A stretch of 64,000 bases of DNA from an uncultured delta proteobacterium (GTDB lineage: Bacteria; Desulfobacterota; Desulfobacteria; Desulfobacterales; JAFDCJ01): the NCBI GenBank assembly GCA_963769935.1, contig CAVYNY010000018.1, positions 96,001-160,000 on the forward strand, written 5' to 3'. The first letter of the stretch is position 1. Each line of letters begins with the position of its first letter. Both the position numbers and the translations under genes were made by a program. The notes under the pieces are model-generated. The model saw only the letters and a program-made list of their open reading frames with translations. It ran no database searches and was not told the DNA's origin. Positions 3,587 to 39,299 of the stretch are shown one piece after another.

Positions 3587-4750
3587 TCAGGTAGGCCCGC
3601 ATTGCGACGGCGTGAGTGAGCAACCAGAATCGGACGATGCCGGGGCGGATGTTTTGGGCGCGGACGGCCGGGCCGATTTCGGCCGCACTGCCAGAGATCT
3701 TATTTTACGGTATAAAGGTTTAACCGATAGAAACAGTATCAACAGCGCACCTGCCCACTGCACCCAAACCGGCACCAGCTCGGATGCGTGGCCCACCATG
3801 GCTTGCGCTGAAATGCCCATGACGGCATACACATGATCGAGAACCAGGCCGAAAAATACGGCCGAAACCGCTATCGTGCTCAGATAGATAGCGGTGGCCC
3901 GCTTGCCGAGAATTCCCGTCAGAACGGTCAAAGACGCCACATTCGTGGCGGGACCGACCAGTAAAAACACCAGGGCTGCGCCCGGGCTGACGCCTTTTAA
4001 GATCAAGGCCGCAGCAATGGGCGTTGAAGCGGTTGCACAAATATACAATGGAATTCCAATGACCAGCATCAGAAGCATGGCCGACAACCCGGACCCGAGA
4101 TATCTGCTGAAGATATCATCCGGGATTAAAACAGTTATGAACCCCGCCAGCAACACTCCGAAAAGAAACCATTTTGCAATGTCCTCCCAGAGATCGCCAA
4201 AGGCATAGCCTACCCCGGCTTTGACTTTTTCTGAAAAGGTATGGTGACTTCGGTGGGTTTCCGGATCACAATTTTTGCCGTCACAGCAGTTGTCGACCGG
4301 ACAGCTGAGATCCGGTATGATCCTTTTGTTTTCAGCGCTATTGCCGAATAAATTTTCGGCGATGCCGGCGATGGTTGCCGTGATAAAGGCGACCAAAGGT
4401 CTTGCCACCGTCATGATCGGGTCCAGCAGCGCATAGGTGATGGAAATCGAATCCACCCCGGATTCCGGCGTTGATATTAAAAAGGCCGTCGTGGCGCCGT
4501 TGTTGGCGCCCTGTTTACGCAGCGACACGGCTGCGGGCAATACCCCGCAGGATCACAACGGAATGGGAATACCTAGAAAAGCCGCTTTAAAGACCGATGA
4601 AAACCGTCCCCGGCCCAGGTGCCGGATCACTGTGTTCGGATTGAGAAACACCCGCAACAGACCGCTGACCAGCAGACCGAATAAAATATAAACCGAGGCT
4701 TCGAGCAGCAGATGCCACGATTCCTTCAATACATCGAGTATAAAATTCAA
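3587..4750 (-). CDS. SO_0444/DUF318-family metal/metalloid permease, probable selenoprotein (in-frame TGA at 4553-4555)
   Basis: ORFs 4553..4750 and 3587..4540 are in the same frame. Read-through gives ...GIPIPL-U-SCGVLPAAVSLRKQGA...ISTPESGVDS...PLYICATASTP, with TGA at the first Cys of the family PLCSCG motif. Confidence 0.85.
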
Positions 4751-4939
4751 GTCCTCTATCCCCTGCTTTTGTTGATTAAGTTTGTTGTGTTCGTTGAGTG
4801 TATTGAGTTCATTGAGTTCGTTGTGTTGATGCGATTGAATGAATCACCCTCTCACACGAATCAACCCAATCCATATTTGACGATACGCTCTGCTCTCAGC
4901 CCTTCGCGTCTCGTCCTTTCCGCTTATATGAAACTACAT

Positions 4940-5045
4940 CTCACACAAAGCGCTCGGAGATCACATAGGTCTAGGTTTACAGGCGCCTGCGGCGAAAGAA
5001 AAATGTTCTCTGCGGTCTCTGTGAGCTCTAACGAAGTGGGCGTGA
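4940..5045. repeat. Degenerate CAC..CAGAG / CTCTG..GTG inverted-arm element
   Basis: tctcacacaaagcgctcggagatcacatag ... ctctgcggtctctgtgagctct...gtga; resembles the element at 61241-61414. Confidence 0.5.
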
Positions 5046-5180
5046 TATTAAATCCAACTGTGTCCGATTTCCAAAAGTTTCTTTTATGATCAGACCGGCC
5101 GTTGTTTTGGCCGGCGGCGGCGCTGACACCTGAAACCTCAAAACCGCTCTCTGCCCTCTGCTCTATGCGCTTTGCGCTGA

Positions 5181-5555
5181 CTATTCCCTAACGTGTTCCA
5201 GCCCAAGATTTAAAAGCCGGGCGACATGTTCATCATCCAGCGAATAGTACATGACTTGTCCCGCACGCCGTTTTTTGACCAGGGATAGATCTTTCAGACG
5301 GCGCAGCTGATGGGACACGGCCGACTCGCTCAGCCCCGTAAATGCCGCCAGATCGCAGACACACATTTCGACATTTCGCAGGGTCATCACGATTTTGAGG
5401 CGGTTCGGATCACCCAACACCTTGTACGTCAGGGACAGTCGTTCCACTTCGCGGTCCGAAATGGCATCTTCACGCGCCTGCTCAACCCGGTCCAGGTGAA
5501 TCACCCGTATTTGACAGCCGTCTTCCTGGATTAATTTGGCCTTGGCTGATCCCAT
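5181..5555 (-). CDS. ArsR/SmtB (CadC/ZiaR-like) metal-responsive repressor
   Basis: KVLGDPNRLKI...EMCVCDLAAFTGLSESAVSHQLRRLK...YYSLDDEHV...HVRE. Start placed at ATG 5555 because the longer ORF overlaps the operator. Confidence 0.93.
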   Translation of the reverse strand: MGSAKAKLIQEDGCQIRVIHLDRVEQAREDAISDREVERLSLTYKVLGDPNRLKIVMTLRNVEMCVCDLAAFTGLSESAVSHQLRRLKDLSLVKKRRAGQVMYYSLDDEHVARLLNLGLEHVRE

Positions 5556-5572
5556 GCCGCCCCCCCTGCTAA

Positions 5573-5598
5573 AATATCTGAACAGATGTTCATATATT
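5573..5598. promoter_or_regulatory. SmtB/ArsR-type 12-2-12 operator
   Basis: aatatcTGAACAgaTGTTCAtatatt, a near-perfect palindrome directly upstream of the ArsR gene. Confidence 0.85.
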
Positions 5599-5618
5599 AA
5601 ATCAATGTGCGTCAATAA

Positions 5619-7490
5619 TCAAGATTTTTTTTGCGGCAAGGTAATGGTGAATTCACAGCCGGACCCCTTAAGATTTTTGACGGATATATTGCCTCTGTAT
5701 TTTTTTACGATCCCGTAACTCACGGATAATCCCAGCCCCAGGTTGGCGTCATTGCCCTTCTTGGTGGAATAGAATGGCAGGAAAATATTGTCCGGATTTT
5801 CATCTTCGATTCCGATGCCATCGTCTTTGAAAACAATGCAGGCATAGGGCTTGCCGTCCATCTGGACACTCGAAGTGTGAATGCAAATCTCTCCGCCGCC
5901 AACGGAGGCCTCGAAACTGTTTTTCAACAGATTCAATACCACCTGTTTGATCTCATTCATATTGGCATTCAGATGAATGGGATGCTCGGCCGGGGTATAT
6001 TCAATGCGAATCCTTTTATTTTTGGCGTTGAATCGGATAAGATTAATAATGCTGGCAATCAGGCCGTTTAATTCAAACTCCTCGTTGACCAATTTATTGC
6101 TGTCTGAAAACGAAATCAGGTTGCTGACAATCTGCTTAATATCGGTAAGTTCTTCTTCAATGTTGGCAATGGTTTCATACATTTTTTCTTTGTCGATATG
6201 GAATTTCATAAAATTTAAATGATTATAAATGATCTCCAGGGGGTTGTTGATTTCATGCGCCACCCCGGCGGCCAGAATTCCCACCGAAGCCAGTTTCTCG
6301 GAGAGAATCACCTGCTGGCGCAGCTTTTCCTGTTTGGAGACATCTTCGATGATGGTAATATTGCCGATGAGAAAGGCGCCGTCATATATGGGCAGGATTT
6401 TGATGTTCGTGATGGTCTTATTGGCATTTACAACCATTGGCACATTGTAAAATGTCTTCTCTTTTTTTTCTGAAAAGGCGGATTTGATCAGGTCCAGTGC
6501 GTTTTTACTGCCTTCCGAAAATAATCCGTCCAGAAAGAGATTTCGATAGCCTGCTTTTTCGAGATTGAAATAGGCTTTGCCGTGGTCGTTGATCATTTTA
6601 ATCTTATTTTCATTGTCTGAAACAATGAGGTTGATGGGCAGCTTCTGCAAAATGGCCTCATTGTATCGCAGAAGTTGAATGAAATCCTGGTAGCTTTCGA
6701 TGTCGTCACTTCCGGAAATTTGAGTATAGCACAATTTGATCAGGTTGATTTTGTCAATGTTGTTCACCGAATCGGTTAAAATAATCTCGCCGTTTCGCAG
6801 GATGGTGACCTTATCGGCCAAACCGTAGATATCATCGATGCTGTGCGTGATGCAGAGAATGGATGTCCCTGTTTTCTTCAGTGCGCTTAATATATCGAGA
6901 ATTTTTTCCAGATGCGTTGCCGCCAGCTTTTCAAGCACGGCGTCGAGGATCAGAAGATCAGGTTTGCGGTACACGCTTCTCAGAATATGGATGACCATCC
7001 GGTCGGACAACGGTAAATTGTTAATAATGGCTGCGGGATCGATGTCGAAACCGTAGCCGGACAGCAGGGCACTCGCCTCTTCCTGCATCAGTCGTCTCTT
7101 TTTGATGAGGGGAAACGGATGATAGACTTTATCCGGGATGAGAAGATTTTCAGCGACGGAGAAATAATTAATGAGTTGAATCTCCTGGGAAGCCATCTCG
7201 ATGTTCAATTTACGCGCTTTACGCAGTGTGAAGTGAGGATAGCTTTCGTCTTTGAACAAAAGTTCACCGGAGGCGGGCTTGATCGCGCCGCAGAGGATCA
7301 TCCCCAACGTAGACTTGCCGGAACCGTGATCTCCCACGATGGCGTGAAATTCAGACCGGTGAAGTTCCAGGCTGATGTTTTTCAGAACCTGAATATTATC
7401 CCGGTTAAAATTGATATTCTTCAGCCTTAATAGGGTCGGCGGACTGGAAGGCTGGGATCGACTAACCTGTTCCTGTAAGTGATATTCCAT
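5619..7490 (-). CDS. Hybrid sensor: sugar-ABC-type ATPase domain + PAS + histidine kinase (HisKA/HATPase_c)
   Basis: Walker A GDHGSGKST, degenerate Walker B LLILDA and H-loop ITH; PAS-like segment; H-box AAGVAHEINNPL, N-box LNLLKN, DDGIGI, FYSTK, LGLGL; no transmembrane helices evident. Confidence 0.9.
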   Translation of the reverse strand: MEYHLQEQVSRSQPSSPPTLLRLKNINFNRDNIQVLKNISLELHRSEFHAIVGDHGSGKSTLGMILCGAIKPASGELLFKDESYPHFTLRKARKLNIEMASQEIQLINYFSVAENLLIPDKVYHPFPLIKKRRLMQEEASALLSGYGFDIDPAAIINNLPLSDRMVIHILRSVYRKPDLLILDAVLEKLAATHLEKILDILSALKKTGTSILCITHSIDDIYGLADKVTILRNGEIILTDSVNNIDKINLIKLCYTQISGSDDIESYQDFIQLLRYNEAILQKLPINLIVSDNENKIKMINDHGKAYFNLEKAGYRNLFLDGLFSEGSKNALDLIKSAFSEKKEKTFYNVPMVVNANKTITNIKILPIYDGAFLIGNITIIEDVSKQEKLRQQVILSEKLASVGILAAGVAHEINNPLEIIYNHLNFMKFHIDKEKMYETIANIEEELTDIKQIVSNLISFSDSNKLVNEEFELNGLIASIINLIRFNAKNKRIRIEYTPAEHPIHLNANMNEIKQVVLNLLKNSFEASVGGGEICIHTSSVQMDGKPYACIVFKDDGIGIEDENPDNIFLPFYSTKKGNDANLGLGLSVSYGIVKKYRGNISVKNLKGSGCEFTITLPQKKS

Positions 7491-8805
7491 ACTTCTTTAA
7501 CTTGTTATACAAGGTTTTCCTGCTGATATCCAACAATCTTGCGGCCTTGCGCTTATTGTAATCGGATTGCTTCAGCATCTTCAAAATCAGCATTTTTTCG
7601 GTTTCTTCCATGATGTTGTATTCGCTTTGTTCTAGCTTCATATCGATAAACGCCGCCGGCAAATCCTCAATTCGAATGTCGCCCGTCGTTGCCATGGTGG
7701 CCGCGTAATTAATGGTATTTTTAAGCTCTCTGATATTACCGGGCCAGTGATAATGACAAAAACGCTTCAACACGTCTTCGGATACCCGCTTGACCATTTT
7801 TGGGTTGTTGTTTGAAATTTGGCTGAGAAAATAATTTACCAGAACAGGAATATCCTCCATGCGCTCCTTGAGCGGGGGAATGTGCAGGGTCGCCGCATTG
7901 ATGCGATAGTATAGATCTTCTCTAAAACGCCCCGCTTCGATAAAGGCTCTAATATCCTTATTGGTGGAAGCGATAAAGCGCACGTCGATGGTGATGTTCT
8001 TGTTGCCGCCGATTCGTCTGATCTCATTGTTTTGAAGGGTTCGAAGTATTTTGGCCTGGGTCGAAGGCGCCATGTCGCCGATTTCATCCAGGTGCAGGGT
8101 GCCTCCATCGGCCCTTTCAAAAATACCGATAAAGGCTGCATCCGCGCCGGTATAGGCACCCTTCTCATGGCCGAACAGCTCGTTGTCCAGCAGCGACTCG
8201 GGAAATGCCGCACAGTTGATGCTGTTGATCTGATATGCGCTGCGTTTTGAGTTGTTGTGGATGAAATTCGCCAGCAGTTCCTTGCCCGTCCCATTTTCCC
8301 CGATGATGAGAATCGGAATATCGGTTTTGGCCAGCCGTTTTGCTTTATTGCACACATCGTTCATTTTCTGGTTGCGCGTGATGATACGATCCGTTAAAGC
8401 GACGATTCTGTTCTTTAAGCGCTGATTTTCATTTTTAAGATCCGCCATCCGAACGGCGTTCTCCACGATTTTCAATATGTTGTTGAAATTTAACGGCTTC
8501 TGCAAGTAATCAAAGGCACCGAGTTTTACGGATTTGACGGCGGTTTCAATGGAGCCGTACCCGGTAATCATGATGACGGGCAGTTTACTATCCCAGGACA
8601 ACAGCCGCTCAAGGACGCTGACGCCGTCTTCTTTGCCCAGCACAATATCCAAAAGAACCACTCCCACCGGGTGTTGCGATAATATGTCAAAGGCCTTGGT
8701 GCTGTTTTCGGCATAATGGCAACGGTATCCGAGTTGATCAAAATTCTGGGCCAGGCTTTTACAGAGTTTGATGTTGTCATCGATGATCAGAATACCCGCT
8801 GCCAT
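7462..8805 (-). CDS. Sigma54-dependent response regulator (NtrC/AtoC family)
   Basis: REC (IIDD, LLD, K), AAA+ GENGTGKE, ELFGHEKGAYTGA (GAFTGA variant), WPGNIREL and Fis-type HTH. Confidence 0.95.
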   Translation of the reverse strand: MAAGILIIDDNIKLCKSLAQNFDQLGYRCHYAENSTKAFDILSQHPVGVVLLDIVLGKEDGVSVLERLLSWDSKLPVIMITGYGSIETAVKSVKLGAFDYLQKPLNFNNILKIVENAVRMADLKNENQRLKNRIVALTDRIITRNQKMNDVCNKAKRLAKTDIPILIIGENGTGKELLANFIHNNSKRSAYQINSINCAAFPESLLDNELFGHEKGAYTGADAAFIGIFERADGGTLHLDEIGDMAPSTQAKILRTLQNNEIRRIGGNKNITIDVRFIASTNKDIRAFIEAGRFREDLYYRINAATLHIPPLKERMEDIPVLVNYFLSQISNNNPKMVKRVSEDVLKRFCHYHWPGNIRELKNTINYAATMATTGDIRIEDLPAAFIDMKLEQSEYNIMEETEKMLILKMLKQSDYNKRKAARLLDISRKTLYNKLKKYGISLTGTG

Positions 8806-8817
8806 GGTGATCGCTCC

Positions 8818-8861
8818 TTACACGTAGTTACACAATGTGTGTAATATTTACACAATGTGTG
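8818..8861. promoter_or_regulatory. Tandem palindromic sites, probable activator binding sites (UAS) or autoregulatory operator
   Basis: ttacacaatgtgtg twice with a 20-bp period (8828-8841, 8848-8861) plus a half-site ttacac at 8818, about 220 bp upstream of the sigma54 promoter. Confidence 0.65.
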
Positions 8862-9079
8862 CCCCCAAGTCAACATCATAAAAATCATATTCTCAACTTT
8901 GTTTCCGCCGTGAAAAGGATCGTGCCCCATTGCATGCTTATCGAGTTTACTTCATGGTCTTATCTTTGATCGGTAATAAAATCAAACTATTATGGCATCG
9001 CTTACCGGCAGGACGCCATCCGGTCGCCCGCCTGTTGTTTTCAGTCCATTGCTTTCAAAACCCATCGAAACTCTTAATC

Positions 9080-9095
9080 TGGCACATGGATTGCT
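9080..9095 (+). promoter_or_regulatory. Sigma54 (-24/-12) promoter of the sugar cluster
   Basis: TGGCAC-ATGGA-TTGCT matches the TGGCAC-N5-TTGCW consensus. Confidence 0.88.
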
Positions 9096-9254: not shown

Positions 9255-9893
9255 ATGAAAGAAGCGTGTCGATGGGGATTGGTCCTCGGCATCCTGATGT
9301 CGGTCATCGTGGCAGGGTCGTCATCTGCCCAAGCGAATGCGGGCGCGCTGAAATGCGTCGGAATCTACTCGGAAACCGCGGCGGGACAGATCAGCTACAG
9401 AATCGGGACCGGCGACTGGGTGGTTATCAAGGTTGGGGATGTCATTCCCGCCGACGCACAGATTCGGGTAAACGTGGCCCAGGATTGGATCGAGCTGACG
9501 CCTTCCAACAATCCAGACGCTGTCTACAAAATCAGCGGAAGCAGCGCGGGAGACATCGTCCGGACGGTAGCGGACATACAGACGAACTCGCCGAAGGGGG
9601 TCAGCTTTCCGCAGCCAAGCGGAGGCACGCCGGATCCGAAATTCGCGAACAAACTGGTCGTCACTCAGTACAATTCGCGGCACGTTTATCGTCAGCCCGG
9701 GCAGCGAGGCAGGGACATTCAGTACGGTGATGTTCTGGAGGCCAACGGCACGGTGAGCATCATCGCTATCAACACGACCATCACCCTCATGAAAGCAGAC
9801 GGAACTACGATCAACGTCATTGGACCGCTGACGTTCAGCGTCCAGAAGGCGATTGCGGGCGAGAAGCTCTACAAGTTCTTGAATGCGCCGTGA
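9255..9893 (+). CDS. Secreted hypothetical protein with two related beta-rich (FecR-N-like) segments
   Basis: Signal peptide ending AQA; GQISYRIGTGDWVVIKVGDVI resembles HVYRQPGQRGRDIQYGDVL; GGAGG RBS. Confidence 0.7.
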   Translation: MKEACRWGLVLGILMSVIVAGSSSAQANAGALKCVGIYSETAAGQISYRIGTGDWVVIKVGDVIPADAQIRVNVAQDWIELTPSNNPDAVYKISGSSAGDIVRTVADIQTNSPKGVSFPQPSGGTPDPKFANKLVVTQYNSRHVYRQPGQRGRDIQYGDVLEANGTVSIIAINTTITLMKADGTTINVIGPLTFSVQKAIAGEKLYKFLNAP

Positions 9894-10057
9894 TACCCAC
9901 GGAAAGGAGGTGATGAAGGTCGGGCAAGAGAGAGCCCGGCAATTGGACCGGGCCCATGAGTATGGCCAACATGGTCTTTCTTCGACCGGCATCGCCGGTG
10001 GGGGAAGAAATCATCCACGGAAGATAAAAAGGGATCTATTTAGTTAGGAGGTTATTC

Positions 10058-11098
10058 ATGAAGCCAACAGCAAAAGTGCTTTTAGGGATCGCAATCGTCA
10101 TGCTCGTCCTGGGTGGGATGATGTTTGCAGGCGGGCTGAAGGAAGGCAGTTACGCATGGGGAGCGTCAATGTCGGAGAGCGGATTTCCGGCCATCACGCA
10201 TCGGCCGATTGTGGTCGGCTTCTCGCAGATCGGTTCTGAGAGTGAATGGCGAACAGCCGATACGGCGTCCGTCCAGCAGTCATTCAAGAACGATCCAGAG
10301 ATGAAACTGATCTACTCCGACGCACAGCAGAAGCAGGAGAATCAGATACAGGCGCTGCGGTCATTCGTCGCACGCAAGGTCGACGTTATCCTGTTCACGG
10401 CGCTGGTTGAGACCGGCTACCGCCCGGTTCTCGAGGAGGCAAAGGCCGCTCGCATTCCCGTCATCATGATCGACCGTGATGTCGCAAAGGAGGATCGTGA
10501 CCTGCGGCTCACAATCATGGGCTCAAATTTCGTGAAGGAGGGCGAGAAGGCCGCCACCTGGCTCGCGAACTACCTGAAGCAGCAGGGCAAAGACGATGGT
10601 ACCAAGACCATCAACATCGTCGAGCTCCAGGGGACCACCGGCTCGGCTCCCGCTATCGATCGGTACAACGGTTTCCGCAACATCATGAAAGATCATCCCA
10701 ACTGGACAATCACCCGTTCCCAGACCGGGAACTTCACGAGCTCAGAGGGCAAGGCGGTCATGGAAGCGTTTTTGAAGGCAGACAAAAACATCGACGTGCT
10801 CTATGCCCACAATGACCAGATGGCGCTCGGCGCGATCCAGGCCATTAAAGAAGCGGGATTGAAGCCCGGCAAAGACATCATCATCGTCTCTATTGACGCC
10901 GTCAAGGGAGCGTTCGAAGCTATGGTGAAGGGCGAGCTGAATGCCTCCATCGAGTGCAACCCGCTCCTCGGACCGCAGGCGCTTCAGGCCGTGCACGATC
11001 TGGCCGACGGGATGAAGCTCCCGGAAAGGATCTGGACGATCGAAGGTGTTTTCGATCAAACCAACGCTGCGGCAGCGCTGCCGACGCGTCAGTACTAG
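10058..11098 (+). CDS. ytfQ: Sugar ABC transporter substrate-binding protein, YtfQ-like (galactofuranose/arabinose)
   Basis: VGFSQIGSESEWR, SDAQQKQENQI, ELQGTTGSAPAIDR, AHNDQMALGAIQA and ECNPLLGP motifs. Confidence 0.85.
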   Translation: MKPTAKVLLGIAIVMLVLGGMMFAGGLKEGSYAWGASMSESGFPAITHRPIVVGFSQIGSESEWRTADTASVQQSFKNDPEMKLIYSDAQQKQENQIQALRSFVARKVDVILFTALVETGYRPVLEEAKAARIPVIMIDRDVAKEDRDLRLTIMGSNFVKEGEKAATWLANYLKQQGKDDGTKTINIVELQGTTGSAPAIDRYNGFRNIMKDHPNWTITRSQTGNFTSSEGKAVMEAFLKADKNIDVLYAHNDQMALGAIQAIKEAGLKPGKDIIIVSIDAVKGAFEAMVKGELNASIECNPLLGPQALQAVHDLADGMKLPERIWTIEGVFDQTNAAAALPTRQY

Positions 11099-11182
11099 CC
11101 GCATATTTGAGCGACACGCAACCTCTCCGGACCGCTTTGATCCTTCGAAGCGGCCCGGATTCAGGTGAGAGGAGGAAGTGAT

Positions 11183-12715
11183 ATGCCGGGCGGCGCCCCA
11201 ATTTTGGAAATGAAGGGCATTCACAAGTCCTTCCCGGGGGTCAAGGCGCTGTCGGGCGTGGATTTCCGCCTCTTCAAGGGCGAAGTGCACGCCGTCATGG
11301 GCCAGAACGGCGCCGGAAAATCCACCCTGGTAAAGGTAATGACCGGCGTGCACCGGCAGGATTCGGGCGAGCTGCTGCTTGAGGGCCGACCGATCAGGCC
11401 CGATTCTCCGTTGGCGGCGCAGCGGTTGGGAATCAGCACGGTCTATCAGGAAATCAACCTCTGCCCCAACCTATCGGTCGCGGAGAACATCTTCATCGGA
11501 AGGCAGCCGATAAAGCTCGGAAGAATCGACTGGAAAAAGATGAACGCACGGGCCCAGGAGCTCTTGCGTAGGCTAAATATCACCGTCAATGTGACGCAAG
11601 TCTTGTCGTCCTATTCAATCGCAATCCAGCAGATGGTCGCCATCGCCCGAGTGTTGGACATCTCATCGAAGATCCTGATTCTGGACGAGCCAACTTCCAG
11701 CTTGGATGAGAACGAGGTCGGGCTTCTTTTCAGCGTCATCCGCTCCTTGCGCGATGGTGGAATGGCGATTCTGTTCATTACCCACTTCCTCGATCAAACC
11801 TACCAGATTTCGGATCGCATTACGATATTGAAAAACGGAACTTTCGTCGGCGAATATGCGACCCAGAGTCTTCCCAAGCTCGATCTCATATCTAAGATGC
11901 TCGGCAAGGAATTGTCCGAGTTCGACTACGCTTCCAATGGCACACGAAAAAAGCGAAATCTCGCATTGGCTGCAGATGATGCTGTGCCGCTGTTGAGCGT
12001 CAAGGAGCTGGGGTTGCGGGGTTCTGTAACTCCGTTCAGTCTCGATCTGCACAAAGGCGAGGTGCTTGGATTCGCGGGACTGCTGGGCTCGGGCCGGACC
12101 GAGACAGCGCGGCTCATCTTCGGCGTCGAACGTGCGAGCCAGGGCGAGGTCTCCGTGCAAAGCAAGAGGATCGGCCTGAGCAGCCCGAGAAGCGCCATGC
12201 TCGCGGGAATGAGCTTCTGCCCCGAAGACCGAAAGAACGAGGGGATCTTTTCCGAGCTTTCCGTTCGAGAGAACATCATCCTGGCGCTGCAGGGAAGCCG
12301 AGGAATCCTCAAGCATCTCTCAGCCCAGAGACAGCTGGAAATTGCCGACGAGCTGATACGGTCCCTTGGGATCATCACACCGAGCGCAAACAGCGTGGCC
12401 GGCCAACTCAGCGGGGGAAACCAGCAGAAGGTGATGCTCGCGCGGTGGCTCGCTACCCGTCCCATCATCCTTATCCTCGACGAGCCGACGCGAGGAATCG
12501 ATGTCGGCGCCAAGCTGGAAGTCATGGCGCTGATTCTCAAGCTTAGCAACGAGGGAATGGGGGTCATCTTCATCTCGGCAGAATTTGAAGAGGTGCTTCG
12601 CTGCAGCGACCGAATCGCGATTCTGAAAGACCGCGCCAAAATCGCTGAGCTCCAGGGCGACGATATGACGGAGGCAAACATTTTGCGTGTCATCGCGGAG
12701 GAAACACAGGAATGA
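11183..12715 (+). CDS. ytfR: Sugar ABC transporter ATP-binding protein with two NBDs, YtfR-like
   Basis: GQNGAGKST, ILILDEPT, GLLGSGRTE, LSGGNQQK and DEPTRGIDVGAK motifs. Confidence 0.88.
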   Translation: MPGGAPILEMKGIHKSFPGVKALSGVDFRLFKGEVHAVMGQNGAGKSTLVKVMTGVHRQDSGELLLEGRPIRPDSPLAAQRLGISTVYQEINLCPNLSVAENIFIGRQPIKLGRIDWKKMNARAQELLRRLNITVNVTQVLSSYSIAIQQMVAIARVLDISSKILILDEPTSSLDENEVGLLFSVIRSLRDGGMAILFITHFLDQTYQISDRITILKNGTFVGEYATQSLPKLDLISKMLGKELSEFDYASNGTRKKRNLALAADDAVPLLSVKELGLRGSVTPFSLDLHKGEVLGFAGLLGSGRTETARLIFGVERASQGEVSVQSKRIGLSSPRSAMLAGMSFCPEDRKNEGIFSELSVRENIILALQGSRGILKHLSAQRQLEIADELIRSLGIITPSANSVAGQLSGGNQQKVMLARWLATRPIILILDEPTRGIDVGAKLEVMALILKLSNEGMGVIFISAEFEEVLRCSDRIAILKDRAKIAELQGDDMTEANILRVIAEETQE

Positions 12716-13761
12716 CATCGTTCCATCCCATACGTTCCGTATTCGCAGCACGGGATGCAAGCAAAAGCATGATCCTATGGTCCCTCGTAGCCCTGGGCTG
12801 CCTCTTCCTGTTCAACCTGTTTTTTACCCCTCACTTCTTCAGCCTCGAGATCAAAGAGGGACACCTATACGGCAACCTTATTGATATTCTAAAGAACGGC
12901 GCGCCGATCATGTTGCTTGCCATCGGGATGACACTTGTCATCGCCACTCGCGGCATCGATATCTCCGTGGGCTCTGTGGTCGCGATTTCCGCAGGTACCG
13001 TTGCAATTTTGCTCGGTGGTGATCTGGCGGGGCATGCAAAGACCCCCCTTGCGATCGCAATGGGCGCTGCTCTATTGATCTCGATTGCCGCCGGAGCGTG
13101 GAATGGGATGCTGGTCTCGCGAATCGGGATGCAGCCCATTATCGCCACGCTGATCTTGTTTGTCGCAGGACGCGGGATCGCAATGGTCTTTACGAATGCA
13201 ATGGTCATCTGGCTCTACGTAAAGCCCTTTGCGCTCCTGGGGCAGGGCTACGTCTTGGGCTTGCCCTTCTCCATCTACATCGTGGGTTTCGTGTTGATCG
13301 TAACGGCGCTCTTTACACGAAGAACAGCGCTCGGCCTCTTCATAGAAGCCGTAGGCATAAACCCTCAGGCTGCCCGCCTTAGCGGCATTAACTCCAAGAA
13401 CATTCTCTTGCTGGTTTACACCTTCAGTGGATTGTGCGCGGGGATATCCGGGTTGATTGTCTGCTCGACCGTCATGAGCGCGGATGGTAACAACGCGGGC
13501 AATCTCTTTGAGCTCGATGCCATTCTCGCCGTTGTGCTGGGCGGCACGTCGCTCAACGGCGGCAAGTTCACGCTCATCGGCAGCATGATCGGCGCTCTCA
13601 TCATCCAGACGCTGACAACCACCATCTATGCATTCAACGTTCCTCCTGAGATTTCCCAGGTGGTCAAGGCGTTAGTTGTCTACGCCGTATGCCTGCTGCA
13701 GTCAGCGGAATTCCGGGGTCGGGTTGCAGGATTGTTCGGCAGAAAGGCGGCTACGGCATGA
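12712..13761 (+). CDS. ytfT: Sugar ABC transporter permease, YtfT-like
   Basis: GMTLVIATRGIDISVGS, QPIIATL, ADGNNAG and ELDAILAVVLGG motifs. Confidence 0.85.
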   Translation: MTSFHPIRSVFAARDASKSMILWSLVALGCLFLFNLFFTPHFFSLEIKEGHLYGNLIDILKNGAPIMLLAIGMTLVIATRGIDISVGSVVAISAGTVAILLGGDLAGHAKTPLAIAMGAALLISIAAGAWNGMLVSRIGMQPIIATLILFVAGRGIAMVFTNAMVIWLYVKPFALLGQGYVLGLPFSIYIVGFVLIVTALFTRRTALGLFIEAVGINPQAARLSGINSKNILLLVYTFSGLCAGISGLIVCSTVMSADGNNAGNLFELDAILAVVLGGTSLNGGKFTLIGSMIGALIIQTLTTTIYAFNVPPEISQVVKALVVYAVCLLQSAEFRGRVAGLFGRKAATA

Positions 13762-14780
13762 AAAGGAAACCTCTTATTGATCCCCGCAACCTACCGGTTC
13801 TCGTAACCTTGGGGCTGTTCATCGTCATGTTCGGGCTCGGGTCGATTGCATTCACGAATTTCTTCTCGATGCAGAACTTCTTCAACCTCTTTATCAACAA
13901 TGCGTACCTGCTCGCTCTTGCGGTCGGCATGACCTTCGTCATCATATCGGGCGGCATCGATCTTTCGGTCGGCTCCATGCTTGCCCTATCAACGATGGTG
14001 TCGGCGAGCCTTGTTGAAAAGTCGCACATGAGTCCCGCCATCGTAATACCGATCGTCCTCTTGATGGGGGTAGTGTTCGGCCTCTTCATGGGCTACCTCA
14101 TCCAGGCCTTCAACATACCGCCCTTCATCGTTACCTTGGCCGGTCTGTACCTGTTCCGTGGGCTGTGTTACGTGGTCAGTATCGACACGATCGCCTTTAA
14201 AAACGATTTCTACCAAACAGTCGCGCGCACCCGCCTGGCAATTATCGGGGAGAACTTTCTTTCGCCGGGCGCAATTGTCGCGCTCGTTGCCGTCCTTGCA
14301 GGTTTGTTCGTTTCCCGCTATACGAAGTTCGGAAGGACCGTCTACGCAATCGGTGGCAACGAGCAGTCCGCAATTCTCATGGGTCTTCCAGTGGTGCGAA
14401 CGAAAATGGCGATTTACGCGGTGAGCGGCTTCTGCTCGGCGCTGGCCGGAATCATCTTCACCTTCTTCACGCTCTCCGGCTACGCGTTGGACGGAAAGGG
14501 GATGGAGCTAGACGCGATTGCGACCGTTGTCATCGGCGGCACCTTGTTGACCGGCGGGGCGGGCAGCATCTTAGGCTCGCTCTTGGGCGTGCTTGTATAT
14601 GGCACAATTCAGGTGCTCATTGTCTTCCAGGGAACGCTCAATTCCTGGTGGACGCGAATCGTGATCGGCTTCCTCTTTTTCGCGGTCTGCTTTATGCAGC
14701 GTATCTTCGAATCGGCGCGAGGCGCCGCCCCGAGAAGGGCGATCCCGAAAGCGTCGGAAAGCGTTTCTGCCGAAAGATAG
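13758..14780 (+). CDS. yjfF: Sugar ABC transporter permease, YjfF-like
   Basis: GMTFVIISGGIDLSVGS, YAIGGNEQSAILMGLPV and LNSWWTRI motifs; ATGA overlap with the upstream permease. Confidence 0.85.
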   Translation: MKRKPLIDPRNLPVLVTLGLFIVMFGLGSIAFTNFFSMQNFFNLFINNAYLLALAVGMTFVIISGGIDLSVGSMLALSTMVSASLVEKSHMSPAIVIPIVLLMGVVFGLFMGYLIQAFNIPPFIVTLAGLYLFRGLCYVVSIDTIAFKNDFYQTVARTRLAIIGENFLSPGAIVALVAVLAGLFVSRYTKFGRTVYAIGGNEQSAILMGLPVVRTKMAIYAVSGFCSALAGIIFTFFTLSGYALDGKGMELDAIATVVIGGTLLTGGAGSILGSLLGVLVYGTIQVLIVFQGTLNSWWTRIVIGFLFFAVCFMQRIFESARGAAPRRAIPKASESVSAER

Positions 14781-15056: not shown

Positions 15057-16064
15057 ATGGCAAAACGAACCACTATAATTTTACTGGTACTAATGCTGAT
15101 CGTCGGCGCGGCGCTGACGGACATTGGGGTTGCGAACGCCCAAGCCGCCGGCAAACAGTTTGAAGGCATCCGGATCGTTTTTTTCCCCGGCGGCAGTGAA
15201 GGGGGACCCTTTGCGTCGGTGGTTTACCGCGGCGCCAAAGCCGCTGAGGAAGATCTCGGCTGCATGGTGGATTACGTCTGGTCGGGTTGGCTGCCTGATA
15301 AAATGGTGGCGCAGTTCAAAGATGCGATTGCCAGGAGGCCGGACGGCATCGCCATCATGGGCCACCCGGGAGTTGCCGCTTATGCGCCGCTGGTGGACGA
15401 GGCGGAGTCCAAAGGCATTATTGTGACCAGCCAGAACACCACGCTGCCGGCGATCGAAGACAAATACAAGGCCCGGGGCTTTGGCTATGTCGGGCAGGAA
15501 CTCTATCCTTCCGGCGTCATGCTGGCCAAAGGTGCGGCTCAAAGAGCCGGTCTGAAAAAAGGTGACCGGGCCATGGTCTGGGGGCTGCTGGGGCAGGAAA
15601 CCCGGGGGCTGAGGACCAAAGGCTGTATCGATGCGCTCAAGCAGCTGGGAGTCACGGTCGATTATATCGAAATCTCGGATGCCGTTAACAGTGATGCGTC
15701 GCTGGGCACGCCGGTGGTTGCCAGCTATATCGCCACCCACCCGGATGTAAAACTGCTCATCACGGACCACGGTGCGTTGACCGCCACGCTGGGCACCTAC
15801 CTGAATGGCGCCCGCAAAAAACCGGGTGATATTTACACCGCCGGGTTTGATTTGAGTGCAGCCACCGCCGCGGCCATCACGGAAGGCTGGGTCGGCTGTG
15901 TTCTCGATCAGCAACCGTGGCTTCAAGGGTACCTGCCGATCCTGCAGATCTGCCTGACCAAAAAATACGGCTTTGCCGGTCTGCATATTGATACGGGCGC
16001 TGCCATCATCGATAAGACGAATATCGATTTTGTTGCGCCGCTGGCGGAAAAAGGCATCCGCTAA
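15057..16064 (+). CDS. Sugar/polyol ABC transporter substrate-binding protein
   Basis: Signal peptide; periplasmic-binding class I motifs GYVGQ, AGFD and DQQPWLQGY. Confidence 0.88.
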   Translation: MAKRTTIILLVLMLIVGAALTDIGVANAQAAGKQFEGIRIVFFPGGSEGGPFASVVYRGAKAAEEDLGCMVDYVWSGWLPDKMVAQFKDAIARRPDGIAIMGHPGVAAYAPLVDEAESKGIIVTSQNTTLPAIEDKYKARGFGYVGQELYPSGVMLAKGAAQRAGLKKGDRAMVWGLLGQETRGLRTKGCIDALKQLGVTVDYIEISDAVNSDASLGTPVVASYIATHPDVKLLITDHGALTATLGTYLNGARKKPGDIYTAGFDLSAATAAAITEGWVGCVLDQQPWLQGYLPILQICLTKKYGFAGLHIDTGAAIIDKTNIDFVAPLAEKGIR

Positions 16065-16075
16065 AAGGAGACCAG

Positions 16076-16855
16076 ATGGCCGCCGCGAATTCCGATCTTG
16101 CGTTGCTGTCCATGTCGAACATTTCAAAATCCTTTGGCGAGGTGGATGTGCTCACCAATGTCGATTTCGCGGTCGGCACGAATGAAATCGTCGGCCTGGT
16201 GGGCGACAACGGCGCCGGCAAATCCACCTTGATCAAAATCATCACCGGTGTGCATCCACCCACCGCCGGCGAGATTTACTTCAAAGGCGAGAAAATCACC
16301 CGGCATTCGGTCAAGCGCTCCCGCCGCCTGGGCATCGAAACCGTCTATCAGGAAAGGGCACTGGCCGATCAGCAGGCGCTCTGGCGCAATGTATTTGCCG
16401 GACGGGAGCTGACCTATAAATTCGGCTTTCTTAAAGTCAAACAGCAAAAAGCGGAAACCGACCGGCTGATCCGGGAGCATATGGGGTTTACCTCTAAAGC
16501 CATTGCCACGGATTCCATGGTTTTATCCCTGTCCGGCGGCGAGAAGCAGGGGATTGCTATCGGCCGCGCTCTTTACTTCGAAGCGGATTTAATCATTCTC
16601 GATGAGCCGACCATGGGCCTTTCCCTCTCCGAGACCCGCAAAGTGCTGGATTTTGTCCGCAACATCAAAAGGCAGGGAAAATCGGCCATCTTTATCAGCC
16701 ACAATATTTACTATGTATATCCGGTGGCCGACCGGTTCGTTATTCTGGACCGCGGCAGCGTGGCCGGAGAATTCTTGAAAGAAGACATTTCTCAGGAGGA
16801 TCTTGTTGAAAAGATGGTTCAGCTGGCACGCACGGGGAAATTGAGTCCGTATTGA
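16076..16855 (+). CDS. Sugar ABC transporter ATP-binding protein (single NBD)
   Basis: GDNGAGKST, LSGGEKQ, IILDEPT and ISH motifs. Confidence 0.92.
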   Translation: MAAANSDLALLSMSNISKSFGEVDVLTNVDFAVGTNEIVGLVGDNGAGKSTLIKIITGVHPPTAGEIYFKGEKITRHSVKRSRRLGIETVYQERALADQQALWRNVFAGRELTYKFGFLKVKQQKAETDRLIREHMGFTSKAIATDSMVLSLSGGEKQGIAIGRALYFEADLIILDEPTMGLSLSETRKVLDFVRNIKRQGKSAIFISHNIYYVYPVADRFVILDRGSVAGEFLKEDISQEDLVEKMVQLARTGKLSPY

Positions 16856-17024
16856 ACAGAAAATGCCCCCTGCGGCGAAAATTGCGGAATGGGCAAAAAG
16901 AATCCGCCGGCGGACCGTGTTCTCAGTGCCTTGTGGTGAAAAGATATTACTGCTAATACGTCACCGCAATTATGAATAAGAGCACTAAATGATTGCTTTA
17001 TTTTAAAAATCTGAGGATAGCCGG

Positions 17025-17984
17025 TTGAAAACAGCTACAATGCGACAGGCAAGGCTGGAGCTGAGTATCGCCGCCGTAATGGTGGGTATCTTTTTGCTGT
17101 TTATTGTCGGCAACCCCAGGGTGTTTACGCGATTTGATATCTACTACTCCTTCATGTCGACCATTCCGTTTTTCGGGATTATGGCCCTGGCCATGACGCC
17201 GGTGGTAACCCTGGGTGAGATGGATCTCTCCTTTCCCTCCGTGCTGGCCCTGTCCGCTCTTCTTTTCGGCAAGGTCTTTATGCTGACGGGAAACATCTGG
17301 CTGGCCGTCCTGGTGTGTCTGACAATCGGCCTGCTGGCCGGGGCCGTGAACGCTGTTCTGATCGTTCGGGTGGGAATACCATCACTGGTGGCCACCATCG
17401 GAACCATGTTCTTTTTTCGCGGCATGGTCAACGTCATCGCCCAGGGTAAGGGAATACCGCTCGTCGCAGCGAAAACGACCCTGGTTTACAGTTTGGCGGT
17501 CGGGCGAATCGGCGGCGTTGTCCCGGCCCAGGCGGTATGGATGCTGGTGCTGGGCATTGCCTTCTGGCTATTGATGAATCGTCACCGATTCGGCTCCCAC
17601 ATTCTTTTTGTCGGCGACAACATGGATAGCTCCCGCATGATGGGCATCAACGTTGAACGGGTGAAAACGATCGTCTTTATGCAGATGGGGTTTTTTGCGG
17701 CGTTTGCCGGGATATTATCCACGCTTGAAGTCACCTACTTCTGGCCGAGTCAGGGCCAGGGGTATCTGCTGACCACCCTGGCGGCCGTATTCATCGGGGG
17801 CACCTCCGTCTTCGGCGGAATGGGCACGATTTTCGGAACCTTTGCCGGCGCCGTCATCATCGGTTCACTGGAAGCCGGAATCATTGCCATCGGTCTGACC
17901 GGATTCTGGATTCAGCTGATATACGGTTTGATTATCATGGTCTCGGTGTCGATTTACGCGATCCTGTTGAAGCGCAAAGCATAG
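17025..17984 (+). CDS. Sugar ABC transporter permease (RbsC type)
   Basis: GEMDLS, IPSLVATIG and AAVFIGGTSVFGG motifs; hydrophobic. Confidence 0.9.
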   Translation: MKTATMRQARLELSIAAVMVGIFLLFIVGNPRVFTRFDIYYSFMSTIPFFGIMALAMTPVVTLGEMDLSFPSVLALSALLFGKVFMLTGNIWLAVLVCLTIGLLAGAVNAVLIVRVGIPSLVATIGTMFFFRGMVNVIAQGKGIPLVAAKTTLVYSLAVGRIGGVVPAQAVWMLVLGIAFWLLMNRHRFGSHILFVGDNMDSSRMMGINVERVKTIVFMQMGFFAAFAGILSTLEVTYFWPSQGQGYLLTTLAAVFIGGTSVFGGMGTIFGTFAGAVIIGSLEAGIIAIGLTGFWIQLIYGLIIMVSVSIYAILLKRKA

Positions 17985-18000
17985 TACCGCTTAGAAAATT

Positions 18001-18170
18001 TTGATGAATTTGTAAAAAGTCGAATTCATCATGTCTGTGGTATTTGTGTTTGGTGTTTGGTATCAAGTATTCAGCGGCATATGAGGGTGTCAGGTCACTA
18101 AACACAAAATACAAAACACTAAACACTCTCGTAAAAAGATCATTTTTTTGACTTTTTACGAGACCGTCAA
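18001..18170. mobile_element. MITE-like element with ~21-bp imperfect terminal inverted repeats and internal 7-nt periodic inverted arms
   Basis: TTGATGAATTTGTAAAAAGTC ... GACTTTTTACGAGACCGTCAA; internal gtgtttggtgtttggtat / aacacaaaatacaaaacactaaacac. Confidence 0.7.
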
Positions 18171-18195
18171 TTTCGACGAAGGGAGTTCAACATAT

Positions 18196-19203
18196 ATGAA
18201 AGTCTTACGTTTGCACGCGGTCGGCGATTTACGACTGCATGATGAAAATGATCCGCTTCCCAATGACGATGAGAGTTTGCTGCGTATAACGGCAGTCGGG
18301 ATTTGCGGGTCCGATTTACATTGGTATGAGGAGGCCGGCATTGGCGATGCGCATTTAAAAAGACCGCTTGTTCTCGGCCACGAGTTTGCGGGAATCATTG
18401 ATTCCGGAGATCAGCAGGGCCGGATAGCAGCGGTTGATCCGGCCATTGCCTGCCGGCAATGCCGCTATTGTGAGGAGGGCAACCCCAACCTGTGTGACAA
18501 TGTGCGCTTTGCCGGCCACGATGCGGTGGATGGCGCCCTGCGTGAAAAAATTTGCTGGCCGAAATCCCTGGTGCACGTGTTGCCGGATGAATTTACCGCT
18601 GCCGACGGGGCGATGTTGGAACCGCTGGGAGTTGCCCTGCATGCGTTGTCTTTGGGGCATGTGCTGCCGGGAATGTCGGTCGGCATATTCGGGTGCGGGC
18701 CGATTGGTCTTTTGCTGGTTCAACTTGCGCGGGCGGCCGGCGCGGCTAAAATCATCGCCACCGACCGTTTAGCCAACCGTCTAGATGCGGCCAGGGCATT
18801 TGGTGCTTCCAGCATCATATTGGCGGCCGGCGGCCGGGAAAACGCGGAGGTGGAAGCCGCCGCCCCGGGCGACGGCGTCGATATCGCCTTTGAAGCCGCC
18901 GGCGACAACGAGGCCGTCGCAACAGCGATTCGGGCAACCCGGCCGGGCAGACAGGTTATTCTGATCGGGATTCCGGATGACGATCGAACGGCATTTCCAG
19001 CTTCGATTGCCCGGCGCAAAGGATTGACGCTAAAGCTGGTGCGAAGGATGAAACACACCTACCCGCTCGCCATTCGGATGGTGCAAAGCGGCGTTGTGGA
19101 CGTCCGGTCCATAGTAACACACCGCTTTCCATTATCCGAATACAAAACGGCCTTTGAAACTGCCAAAAAAAGAGAAGGCCTAAAGATTGTTATCGAACCA
19201 TAA
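18196..19203 (+). CDS. Zinc-binding polyol dehydrogenase (L-iditol/xylitol/arabitol-type MDR)
   Basis: GICGSDLH, LGHEF, CRQCRYCEEGNPNLC, MLEPL and GCGPIG motifs. Confidence 0.9.
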   Translation: MKVLRLHAVGDLRLHDENDPLPNDDESLLRITAVGICGSDLHWYEEAGIGDAHLKRPLVLGHEFAGIIDSGDQQGRIAAVDPAIACRQCRYCEEGNPNLCDNVRFAGHDAVDGALREKICWPKSLVHVLPDEFTAADGAMLEPLGVALHALSLGHVLPGMSVGIFGCGPIGLLLVQLARAAGAAKIIATDRLANRLDAARAFGASSIILAAGGRENAEVEAAAPGDGVDIAFEAAGDNEAVATAIRATRPGRQVILIGIPDDDRTAFPASIARRKGLTLKLVRRMKHTYPLAIRMVQSGVVDVRSIVTHRFPLSEYKTAFETAKKREGLKIVIEP

Positions 19204-19443
19204 TGCCGGAAGCAGATCTTCAAAAAACGAATGTCGAATGTCGATCGTCAAATGGAGGTATTCTGACTATTTTTAGGAATGACCGAGCGCAGTGAAACCA
19301 GCTTTCGAGATGCTGGGATTCGTCATTATGCTGTTCTAAGGTTTGCTGTTCAAACTTGGTGATGTTTCACATGAGCTCGGCCTCTGGCCGCGAGCGTTCA
19401 GTCTGATCAGAAAAAAAACTTTATAATTGGAGAGAAAAAGACG

Positions 19444-19595
19444 AATGGATTCTCATTTTAAAGAAAATAATTGGACAGGATCAACAGGATCGTTAGGATA
19501 ATGCGGCCTTCGGCCGAAAGGCCCCTCGCCGCAGGCGAAAAAATTCCTGATAATCCTGTTAATCCTGTCTAAATAAAATATAAGCCGAATCCATT
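19444..19595. repeat. Inverted-arm element with ~9-nt periodic arms and central GC hairpins
   Basis: aatggattc...gacaggatcaacaggatcgttaggat ... atcctgttaatcctgtc...gaatccatt; central ggccttcggccgaaaggcc. Confidence 0.75.
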
Positions 19596-19662
19596 CCACA
19601 TACCTTCATTGAAGTTTCACATGAGATCTCCGGGTTTTGGAAGCGGTCAGAAGGAGTAAATC

Positions 19663-21342: not shown

Positions 21343-21343
21343 T

Positions 21344-21501
21344 TACAGAGAAGGCCATAATTAAGTAAACATAAAAGATGTCTCTGTCAGCCACCATGTT
21401 TTATTAATTTAGAAATGGCATTCGGCGCAGGGCTTTAGGCACAAGGTAAAGGTTTTTTTCGATTTTAAATACATCTTATGTCTAATAATTTATGCTCGGC
21501 T
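21344..21501 (+). repeat. ~160-bp dispersed MITE-like repeat A, copy 2
   Basis: Direct copy of 14848-15006 with scattered substitutions. Confidence 0.88.
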
Positions 21502-21574
21502 CAGTAAGCCCGCCCTGAAAAACAGCACATTGATGTAAGCCATTGGCCGTATTGATAGATTGAAAGTTATCCAC

Positions 21575-22639: not shown

Positions 22640-22647
22640 AAGATTTT

Positions 22648-23796: not shown

Positions 23797-23852
23797 TTTG
23801 TGGTTTTTTTAACCAGCTAAAATGTTACCAAAATTAGAGAAAGGGACAAGCG

Positions 23853-25364: not shown

Positions 25365-25371
25365 GGTGTCG

Positions 25372-25516
25372 GTTGTGGGTTGTAAGTTGTGTGTTGCATG
25401 TTGTGTGTTGCTTCATAGGATGACTTCAAATTTATATTCGCTGGGATCGTGAAATATAGAATTCAAATTGATATCATCCGAATCTCCAACAAACAACATC
25501 CAACTTACAACATGCA
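25372..25516. repeat. 7-nt periodic (GTTGxxx) inverted-arm element
   Basis: gttgtgg-gttgtaa-gttgtgt-gttgcat-gttgtgt-gttg ... caacaaa-caacatc-caactta-caacatg. Confidence 0.7.
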
Positions 25517-25586
25517 TTGAGCGGTACGACTCAATTTGAGTGCTATAAATTAAAGCATATGTGTTGCTAAAGAGGAGCCACAACGC

Positions 25587-26291: not shown

Positions 26292-26320
26292 ATTTTTTCA
26301 AGAAATAGGGGAGAACAAAT

Positions 26321-35791: not shown

Positions 35792-35807
35792 TGGCACATC
35801 TCTTGCT
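35792..35807 (+). promoter_or_regulatory. Sigma54 (-24/-12) promoter of the chemosensory operon
   Basis: TGGCAC-ATCTC-TTGCT. Confidence 0.85.
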
Positions 35808-38122: not shown

Positions 38123-38141
38123 AACAAAAGGAGATTCATGT

Positions 38142-38507: not shown

Positions 38508-38599
38508 GTAAAAATGCGCCGCTGGCAGATAAACGCTTTTGTAAGCTGAAATGACCGTCAACCTGTATCTGCCACAGCCAACAGCGAGGCTAATCAGTT

Positions 38600-39229: not shown

Positions 39230-39299
39230 AGAATGCCGCCGGGGATGAAAAAACGAATTAAAACCAATTAACCTTGCCGACTGCATAAGGAGACAGTTT

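Follow-up and report, generated by a model that had tools for sequence, protein, structure and literature searches.

An ABC-type nucleotide-binding domain fused to a soluble histidine kinase: a conserved family linked to CUT2 sugar importers and its possible docking on sugar permeases

We examined a 64,000-nucleotide stretch (the window) of contig CAVYNY010000018.1 from an uncultured delta proteobacterium (Desulfobacterales, JAFDCJ01; assembly GCA_963769935.1, positions 96,001 to 160,000). On its minus strand, at 5619-7490, lies a gene for a 623-residue protein that joins a nucleotide-binding domain (NBD) of the ATP-binding cassette (ABC) type to a PAS fold and a histidine kinase. The original prediction had described this fusion as lacking a transmembrane helix, and the open reading frame (ORF), Pfam, NCBIfam, AlphaFold, a hydropathy scan and contigs of a further sequencing run all confirmed it. 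No transmembrane helix was found in the kinase, the highest 19-residue Kyte-Doolittle mean being 1.49. Pfam placed ABC_tran at residues 36-183 (E 1e-18), HisKA at 406-463 (30.7 bits, cut-off 26.9) and HATPase_c at 513-621 (68 bits, cut-off 26.4). The genome holds one full-length copy.

The N-terminal domain (residues 19-258, 6717-7436) resembles NBD1 of the tandem ATPases of CUT2 importers by Pfam, NCBIfam, alignment and AlphaFold. Residues 20-254 match the first half of the YtfR model (1-233 of 492), and the first 250 residues also match the first halves of the AraG, AlsA and RbsA models, below their curated cut-offs. The kinase carries a single ABC_tran stretch, not the two NBDs with LSGGNQQ in the second that define a CUT2 tandem ATPase. 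The motifs named in the original prediction were all located: Walker A GDHGSGKST at 53-61, the QE of the Q-loop (Q102), the signature LPLSD, Walker B LLILDA (D183-A184) and the ITH switch (H216). The D-loop is replaced by VLEKL, and the domain ends in a family-specific helix, 247-258. A linker helix (265-282) carrying a conserved F..LL.YNEAIL leads into a PAS fold (283-383; together 6342-6698 by alignment, AlphaFold and Foldseek). The PAS fold scored below the Pfam cut-off (PAS_10, E 0.02); the AlphaFold model of residues 261-401, with a predicted local distance difference test score (pLDDT) of 88.5, gave PAS/LOV structures throughout the Foldseek matches listed, at TM-scores up to 0.72. The whole-kinase model, built on a 150-row alignment, had a pLDDT of 87.4 and a predicted template modelling score of 0.56 and consisted of an ABC NBD, helix 265-282, a PAS-like domain and the kinase core. 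Searches by sequence and by Foldseek found no solved structure spanning both halves; ABC ATPases and PAS kinases were matched separately.

The catalytic half (5634-6338; Pfam, NCBIfam) is a class I (HisKA) kinase of the NtrB/AtoS type, with the H-box histidine and the N, G1, F and G2 boxes of HATPase_c all present. His412 is kept in 121 of 121 family rows, 120 of which came from the best 150 representatives (50% clustering) and aligned over nearly the whole length; H412, N524, D556, G558, G560, G585 and G587 are invariant across 150 rows. The best NCBIfam match of residues 270-622 was AtoS at 198 bits, against a cut-off of 646, and the protein is therefore not an AtoS equivalog.

The predicted overlap with an NtrC-type activator gene, divergent from a sigma54 consensus and two sugar ABC transporters, was also borne out. 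The activator gene (7462-8805, minus strand, 447 residues) overlaps the kinase start by 29 nt. Its Pfam domains (Response_reg, Sigma54_activat and HTH_8) are those of a sigma54 enhancer-binding protein, a receiver (REC) domain, an AAA+ domain and a Fis-type helix-turn-helix; its GAYTGA loop is the commonest variant among family activators (35/83). A pattern scan placed a perfect -24/-12 promoter at 9080-9095 on the plus strand. Within the window alone, sigma54 matches at one mismatch or fewer are not beyond chance (3 versus 2.5 expected). Across 75 family loci, the strict pattern pointed away from the activator in 37 and was on the opposite strand in none, and a site accompanied 36 of the 62 loci with a divergent transporter. 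An RpoN-box motif is present in the genome. A second perfect consensus (35792-35807) stands shortly downstream of a further NtrC-type gene (34224-35621), with chemotaxis-like genes (36395-42425) following it; the family operator has no strong match beside this site.

Two 17-nt direct repeats (8825-8841 and 8845-8861) separate activator and promoter. Tandem palindromic sites had been claimed here; the repeats exist, but the element conserved in the family is their junction, a GTGT-(A/T-rich)-ACAC palindrome at 8837-8853 (unstranded), which motif enrichment predicts as the activator site. Over 47 upstream regions GTGT-(A/T)9-ACAC reached a mean score of 11.6, against 6.5 ± 0.25 in 20 shuffles. 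The two repeats were rejected as the operator, their family signal being weaker (mean 9.2 versus about 6.3). The 8837-8853 element is the best operator match in its own genome, by a matrix that includes that site. GTCAA follows the palindrome by 12-18 nt in 12 of the 47 regions, and in these sequences it is possibly the -35 box of the regulators' own promoter; a sigma70 scan listed no minus-strand promoter.

Past the promoter, on the plus strand, the first gene (9255-9893) encodes a 212-residue protein with a signal-peptide-like N-terminus and no Pfam match. It is followed by a CUT2 importer resembling YtfQ/YtfR/YtfT/YjfF (GafABCD), the predicted partner of the kinase (10058-14780; Pfam, NCBIfam, tree), which comprises a binding protein (10058-11098), a tandem ATPase (11165-12715) and two permeases (12712-13761 and 13758-14780). 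The binding protein matches YtfQ at 331 bits, below the NCBIfam cut-off of 510, and the Ytf naming of ATPase and permeases is taken from cluster representatives of a relative and from the tree. A second CUT2 importer (15057-17984; Pfam, NCBIfam) has a binding protein at 15057-16064, a single-NBD ATPase at 16076-16855 and a permease at 17025-17984; it is not a conserved neighbour of family kinases. Pfam assigned the genes beyond it (18148-27379) to a Zn-dehydrogenase, an FGGY kinase (AraB-like), GalT, GalK, AraA, a class II aldolase (AraD-like) and an aldose epimerase. These genes appear to serve L-arabinose and galactose catabolism, the AraB and AraD labels being drawn from family and context. 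GafA/YtfQ proteins are reported to bind the furanose forms of arabinose and galactose (PMC10191376), and L-arabinose and galactose are therefore the likely inducers of the system.

On the other side of the kinase, an ArsR-family regulator gene (5181-5615) begins 4 bases past the kinase stop on the same strand, followed by a gene for an ArsP-type permease; this pair (3587-5615) was not found in related loci. The GC content of the kinase and activator genes is 0.44 and 0.47, compared with 0.51 for the genome and 0.53-0.61 for the facing operon.

An assembly artefact was ruled out as the origin of the fusion, because contigs of run X2, from a different study than the best-covering run X1, bridge both domain junctions (NBD/PAS, 6450-6959, 0 differences; PAS/DHp, the dimerisation and histidine phosphotransfer domain, 6186-6473, 1 difference) and because the family is wide. 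RNA runs X18 and X19 contain related-strain contigs over the kinase and activator genes, which is not proof of transcription. A query with residues 150-400 returned 143 proteins, and 112 of the 120 matches listed had both ABC_tran and HisKA. A query from a second subfamily, with Walker A GEHRAGKS, returned 908 matches, 120 of them listed; the motif counts given below for this subfamily rest on 112 rows. Members down to 27% identity align over nearly the full kinase length. In databases they are labelled AtoS or "ATP-binding protein", and ESM Atlas holds the ABC_tran-PAS-kinase architecture as an unnamed cluster of 62 members; a query there with the NBD alone returned plain ABC ATPases. Other ABC_tran plus HisKA leads in ESM Atlas at 0.83 were a shorter Spirochaetota form (515 residues, 136 members) and Actinomycetota clusters, one with GAF (166 members). 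A scan for longer fused forms gave 1 unrelated match among 1469 candidates, weak evidence of absence. One 651-residue protein (P0233) has a kinase core 58% identical to that of the present kinase and an unrelated N-terminus in which, read by eye, a hydrophobic segment precedes a HAMP-like stretch: the same core with a conventional input.

Carriers of the fusion include Spirochaetota, Moduliflexota/KSB3, Desulfobacterota, Planctomycetota, Verrucomicrobiota, Poribacteria and others. The distribution is patchy. The fusion occurred in 13 of 301 Spirochaetota genomes and, with 4-6 candidates scored per genome, in 2 of 201 genomes of its own order (its own genome counted) and in 0 of 4 other genomes of its own genus. 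In a tree of 149 NBDs (a quick method, unrooted, with long-branch warnings), all 48 kinase NBDs fell on one side of a branch with a Shimodaira-Hasegawa-like approximate likelihood ratio support of 100, separate from both NBD1 and NBD2 of the neighbouring ATPases. One old fusion event is the simplest reading of this tree, because the kinase NBDs form one side of the branch. Repeated capture of an NBD from the neighbouring ATPase was rejected on the single kinase branch (48/48) of this quick, unrooted tree and on the absence of raised identity to cognate ATPases. The family is real and conserved.

Linkage to CUT2 importers was nearly universal. We recovered 107 fusion ORFs, that of the window included, or 86 after collapsing at 90% identity. 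An NtrC-type gene stood directly upstream of the kinase in 80 of 81 loci with enough flank. Of the 63 loci with 5 kb or more of upstream sequence, 62 had a CUT2 tandem ATPase or permease no further than 8 kb away, and in 53 of the 63 it was divergent; with contig-end loci included, 75 of 86 had such a gene that close. Against a background of 4 in 98 kinase-core ORFs of the same genome within 8 kb of CUT2 genes, the fusion kinase among them, this is the conserved linkage expected of a co-sensor two-component system with the transporter that it controls; homologues unlinked to sugar ABC genes, which would have spoken against the original prediction, are the exception. Binding-protein partners were YtfQ-, ChvE-, RbsB- and rhizopine-like. 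Three genomes (G001, G003 and G004) hold 3, 4 and 5 paralogues, and all 12 lie beside a CUT2 cluster, one cluster being common to two of them. So many paralogues in one genome, as many as five, each by a pump, call for a cognate rather than a global signal. In L063, L087 and L109, two fusion kinase/activator pairs flank a single transporter, and in L087 and L109 one of the two kinases has a decayed P-loop or Walker B, a possible intact/dead pair.

Two features of the NBD had been taken as signs of impaired hydrolysis. The first, the degenerate signature, is not supported as a sign of impairment after the fusion: in 45 neighbouring tandem ATPases NBD1 has GxNGAGK (45/45) and no Gly-Gly signature, and NBD2 has LSGGNQQK (45/45) and no Walker A Lys. 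The same asymmetry is noted for RbsA and NupO in PMC11466899. The degenerate signature was therefore inherited, since NBD1 of ordinary CUT2 ATPases lacks Gly-Gly too. The second, replacement of the Walker B Glu, is not a family trait. In the 121 rows K59 is kept in 116, D183 in 117, Q102 in 92, H216 in 84 and Glu184 in 106, with Ala in 2. In the second subfamily the A-loop Tyr is kept in 111, the Walker A Lys in 111, the Walker B Glu in 112 and the switch His in 111 of 112 rows. Among 113 close rows position 184 is Glu in 81 and Ala in 26, so Ala184 marks the lineage of the kinase studied here, which includes a fusion kinase of Pseudodesulfovibrio indicus (P0031). Most relatives have the active-site residues; the present kinase keeps H216, and R30 replaces the A-loop aromatic and A184 the catalytic Glu. 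With both missing, this copy is likely unable to turn over ATP itself, as judged from its residues. The A-loop aromatic is missing in 7 of 7 YtfT-linked kinases versus 10 of 53 others, most of the 7 being kin.

Other changes separate the kinase NBDs from NBD1. In place of the NBD1 motifs GxNGAGKST and DEPT the kinase has GDHGSGKST and DAVL. The Walker A Asn-to-His change is family-wide (88/121 rows, and 111/112 in the second subfamily), and the Walker A Asn and the D-loop Pro and Thr are retained in 0 of 60 kinases, compared with a D-loop Pro-Thr frequency of 0.95 in NBD1. NBD1-specific residues are likewise lost (n = 60: E193 0.08, F198 0.05, M254 0, R257 0). Residues on the Q-loop side stay near NBD1 levels (n = 60: G68 0.90, G96 0.78, I97 0.83, Q102 0.90, L106 0.77, E114 0.80, N115 0.87), and helices 247-258 and 265-282 are new conserved features. 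Six members (P0199, P0204, P0211, P0218, P0235 and P0241) retain the whole domain with a ruined P-loop, and two such members, the second copy in L040 and the first in L087, still adjoin an activator and CUT2 genes.

The importer at the locus has probably been exchanged. The kinase is 92% identical to that of locus L058, and kinase, activator and second transporter are 90-96% identical to L058/L089 counterparts; for the four Ytf-like proteins, identity to the same loci drops to 62, 54, 53 and 48%. These proteins are closest to a Spirochaetota locus (81, 67, 78 and 74%). The sole homologue of the 212-residue protein among the loci (55%; L011/L115, at 7397-8047 in L011) is also encoded first past the promoter, and only the present locus and the Spirochaetota locus closest to the swapped transporter share this gene. 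Promoter DNA can be aligned with L058/L059 as far as a point shortly beyond the sigma54 site, where the similarity ends; one X2 contig spans 8600-10848. Because the Ytf-like identities are low although the kinase was kept, and because the alignment ends past the sigma54 site, 9255-14780 (the 212-residue gene and the Ytf-like transporter) is likely a xenologous replacement behind a retained regulator, with its breakpoint just after the promoter.

We propose, at a probability of roughly one half, that the soluble kinase docks through its CUT2 NBD1-like input domain on the cytoplasmic face of the neighbouring sugar permease. Docking is favoured because the Q-loop face is kept, the dimer face is remodelled and ATP chemistry is dispensable in some members, and because a soluble kinase with neither a transmembrane helix nor an extracytoplasmic sensor needs a cognate signal. 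A kinase dimer would offer two NBDs, matching the two coupling helices of a permease dimer, and these would stand in for the tandem ATPase on some permeases, so that permease and binding protein would act as the sugar receptor of the kinase. When a binding protein loaded with sugar (likely the furanose form of L-arabinose or galactose) arrives, the NBDs would shift, and helices 247-258 and 265-282 would relay the shift through PAS to His412. Once phosphorylated, the activator would occupy 8837-8853 and switch on the sigma54 promoter at 9080. ATP binding would likely tune the NBD in most members, and hydrolysis is likely dispensable and predicted lost in the present copy, so the signal would be the state of the transporter rather than ATP flux. 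A more specific form is tentative, and we think it less probable than not: a complex of binding protein, permease and kinase in which kinase NBDs on both coupling helices replace the tandem ATPase and signal without transport. ABC NBDs would then be a general plug-in input, and the other ABC_tran-kinase architectures of ESM Atlas are of interest here.

Flux sensing, as first suggested, is not supported by these data: nothing separates it from sensing of conformation or occupancy, and the present copy likely cannot turn over ATP. Nor did the suggested pairing with the single-NBD ATPase at 16076-16855 fit the family, since that protein has a 96% homologue only in L058 and L089, other matches listed being at most 42% identical. 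The suggestion of docking on a permease fared better, with weak and indirect support from complex prediction and co-divergence.

Complex prediction was carried out for a relative's cognate pair, the P0056 NBD with the L015 permease dimer, picked for its homodimeric permease. The pair scored 0.52, against 0.00 for the best of 3 controls, with runs agreeing in at least 83% of contacts and a partner pLDDT of at least 79. This was graded as weak support: among reference pairs, 116 of the 157 solved ones and 2 of the 215 mismatches attained the mark, but only 18 of the solved ones, together with both mismatches, did so at scores up to 0.60. The modelled score may reflect a general likeness to complexes of NBDs with transmembrane domains, although a sequence search of the PDB found no CUT2 permease.

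Co-divergence pointed the same way. In partial Mantel tests over 53 loci, distances of the kinase NBD tracked those of the permease (r 0.22, 0/500 permutations; r 0.19, p 0.010 with BLOSUM distances), and no permease signal was seen for PAS, kinase core or activator, nor any between NBD and binding protein. A 28-column groove set, drawn from a MalK contact map after per-column scores had been seen, held up better: it gave r 0.26, stayed at 0.19 (p 0.022) without the closest half of pairs and was 0.16 (p 0.028) without YtfT loci. Groove-set identity was higher to cognate than to other NBD1 (0.304 versus 0.285 in 60 pairs, p 0.0013; BLOSUM p 0.043). Columns picked from true NBD1 data and tried in the kinase gave r 0.23, reached by 6.6% of random sets. 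The highest per-column convergence with cognate NBD1 was z 2.9, no more than expected by chance from about 240 columns.

Several results weigh against docking. Without the closest half of pairs the whole-NBD signal fell to r 0.06 (p 0.28), and without YtfT-type loci to 0.03 (p 0.37, BLOSUM distances, 46 loci) or 0.14 (p 0.065, identity distances, 43 loci); signals from Mantel tests are inflated when kin are included. A sliding scan did not localise the signal to the coupling helix. The groove test fails on true NBD1 (r 0.008), where it does not single out the groove, and is therefore not validated. Over the whole domain, identity to cognate NBD1 was not raised (0.272 versus 0.270, p 0.23, 60 pairs). 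The near-invariant catalytic Glu and His of the second subfamily (112 and 111 of 112) are not explained by a homodimer lacking signature motifs. Finally, the kinase was kept (92% to L058) although the permeases beside it gave way to others 53% and 48% identical to those of L058. The coupling-helix regions are still similar after the swap, and therefore docking would still be feasible, with no tight pairing required. A search for excess groove changes in the kinase after the swap (3/28 versus 22/577 other positions) yielded too few to count.

That tolerance of a transporter swap within one substrate class is also what ligand sensing predicts. The kinase could be a free cytoplasmic sensor whose PAS or NBD binds imported sugar or sugar phosphate, or whose NBD reads ATP/ADP, the transporter only supplying ligand. 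In its favour, the kinase has a PAS fold whose structural matches include ligand-binding PAS domains, and gene linkage is expected of any sugar regulator. However, a single NBD family works with systems of the Ytf, Rbs, ChvE and rhizopine types, a general ATP signal does not explain up to five pump-side paralogues or members with dead P-loops, and PAS distances track neither binding protein (partial r 0.005) nor permease, although in a low-power test. We consider this explanation unlikely, at around one chance in four.

Conserved catalytic residues are better explained if the kinase NBD sits on one permease as the partner of the tandem ATPase's NBD2, from which the intact signature would come. 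Such a composite site would hydrolyse ATP in most members and amount to true flux sensing, the present copy being a non-hydrolysing derivative. What the family keeps is precisely the cis side of the only active site in a CUT2 ATPase (second subfamily, 111-112/112), and the lost D-loop would, given the NBD1/NBD2 asymmetry, face the degenerate site. Nevertheless, residues specific to NBD1 that follow the D-loop or lie C-terminally have been lost (E193, F198, M254, R257), no co-divergence was seen with NBD1 or NBD2 (r 0.09 each; p 0.14 for NBD2), and a tethered NBD1 would be expected to outcompete the kinase NBD for NBD2. These points make such an exchange improbable. Least probable is an NBD kept as a remnant for folding or dimerisation, with input through another protein or an activator controlled otherwise: several members have decayed catalytic motifs and kinase NBD branches are long, but the full domain is retained down to 27% identity with invariant family-specific positions.

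Full-text literature searches (titles and starts of abstracts, with subscription journals mostly uncovered) returned no description of an NBD-kinase fusion, and "ABC" is absent from the main text of the ANTAR paper (PMC3369931); the family is apparently undescribed. If docking is right, it would be a new route from transporter to kinase through the NBD docking site itself, using neither membrane sensor nor adaptor. The conformation of CUT2 permeases could then be read directly as phosphorylation, and a modular sugar biosensor might follow. P. indicus is a possible test host.

Known systems resemble the fusion kinase in parts. AtoS-AtoC, NtrB-NtrC and ZraS-ZraR, its best NCBIfam matches, share the PAS-HisKA-HATPase core and the REC-AAA+-HTH activator, but the input here is an ABC NBD and the scores are far below cut-offs (198 versus 646; 417 versus 714). 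Transporter state is relayed to a regulator in PstSCAB-PhoU-PhoR, MalK-MalT, DctA-DcuS and CbrA; in Pst and Mal the NBD belongs to a working pump, and in CbrA the part joined to the kinase is a membrane symporter domain instead of an NBD. LytS, VirA, TorS and LuxQ each have a membrane-anchored sensor that contacts the binding protein on the extracytoplasmic side, whereas the fusion kinase has no such sensor and would need the permease as a conduit. The likeness is that in LytS-XylFII, which controls a xylose ABC operon, VirA-ChvE, TorS-TorT and LuxQ-LuxP, ligand is detected by a transporter-type binding protein (PMC8050422). With NBD1 of RbsA, YtfR, AraG and XylG (PMC11466899) the kinase shares the fold, Walker A Lys, Q-loop, Walker B Asp, His switch and non-canonical signature; it differs in having one NBD followed by PAS and kinase, a His for the Walker A Asn (45/45 in NBD1) and a separate clade (48/48). 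A further parallel is the flux-sensing module BceRS-BceAB, in which the membrane kinase BceS is reported to be activated by a piston-like displacement in the membrane through a HAMP-like domain (PMC4513084; bioRxiv 10.1101/2020.02.28.969956). The fusion kinase would work likewise, but it is not a member: the neighbouring permeases are BPD_transp_2, and where the Bce ATPase is a separate protein, this kinase is soluble, carries its own NBD and is paired with a CUT2 importer and a sigma54 activator.

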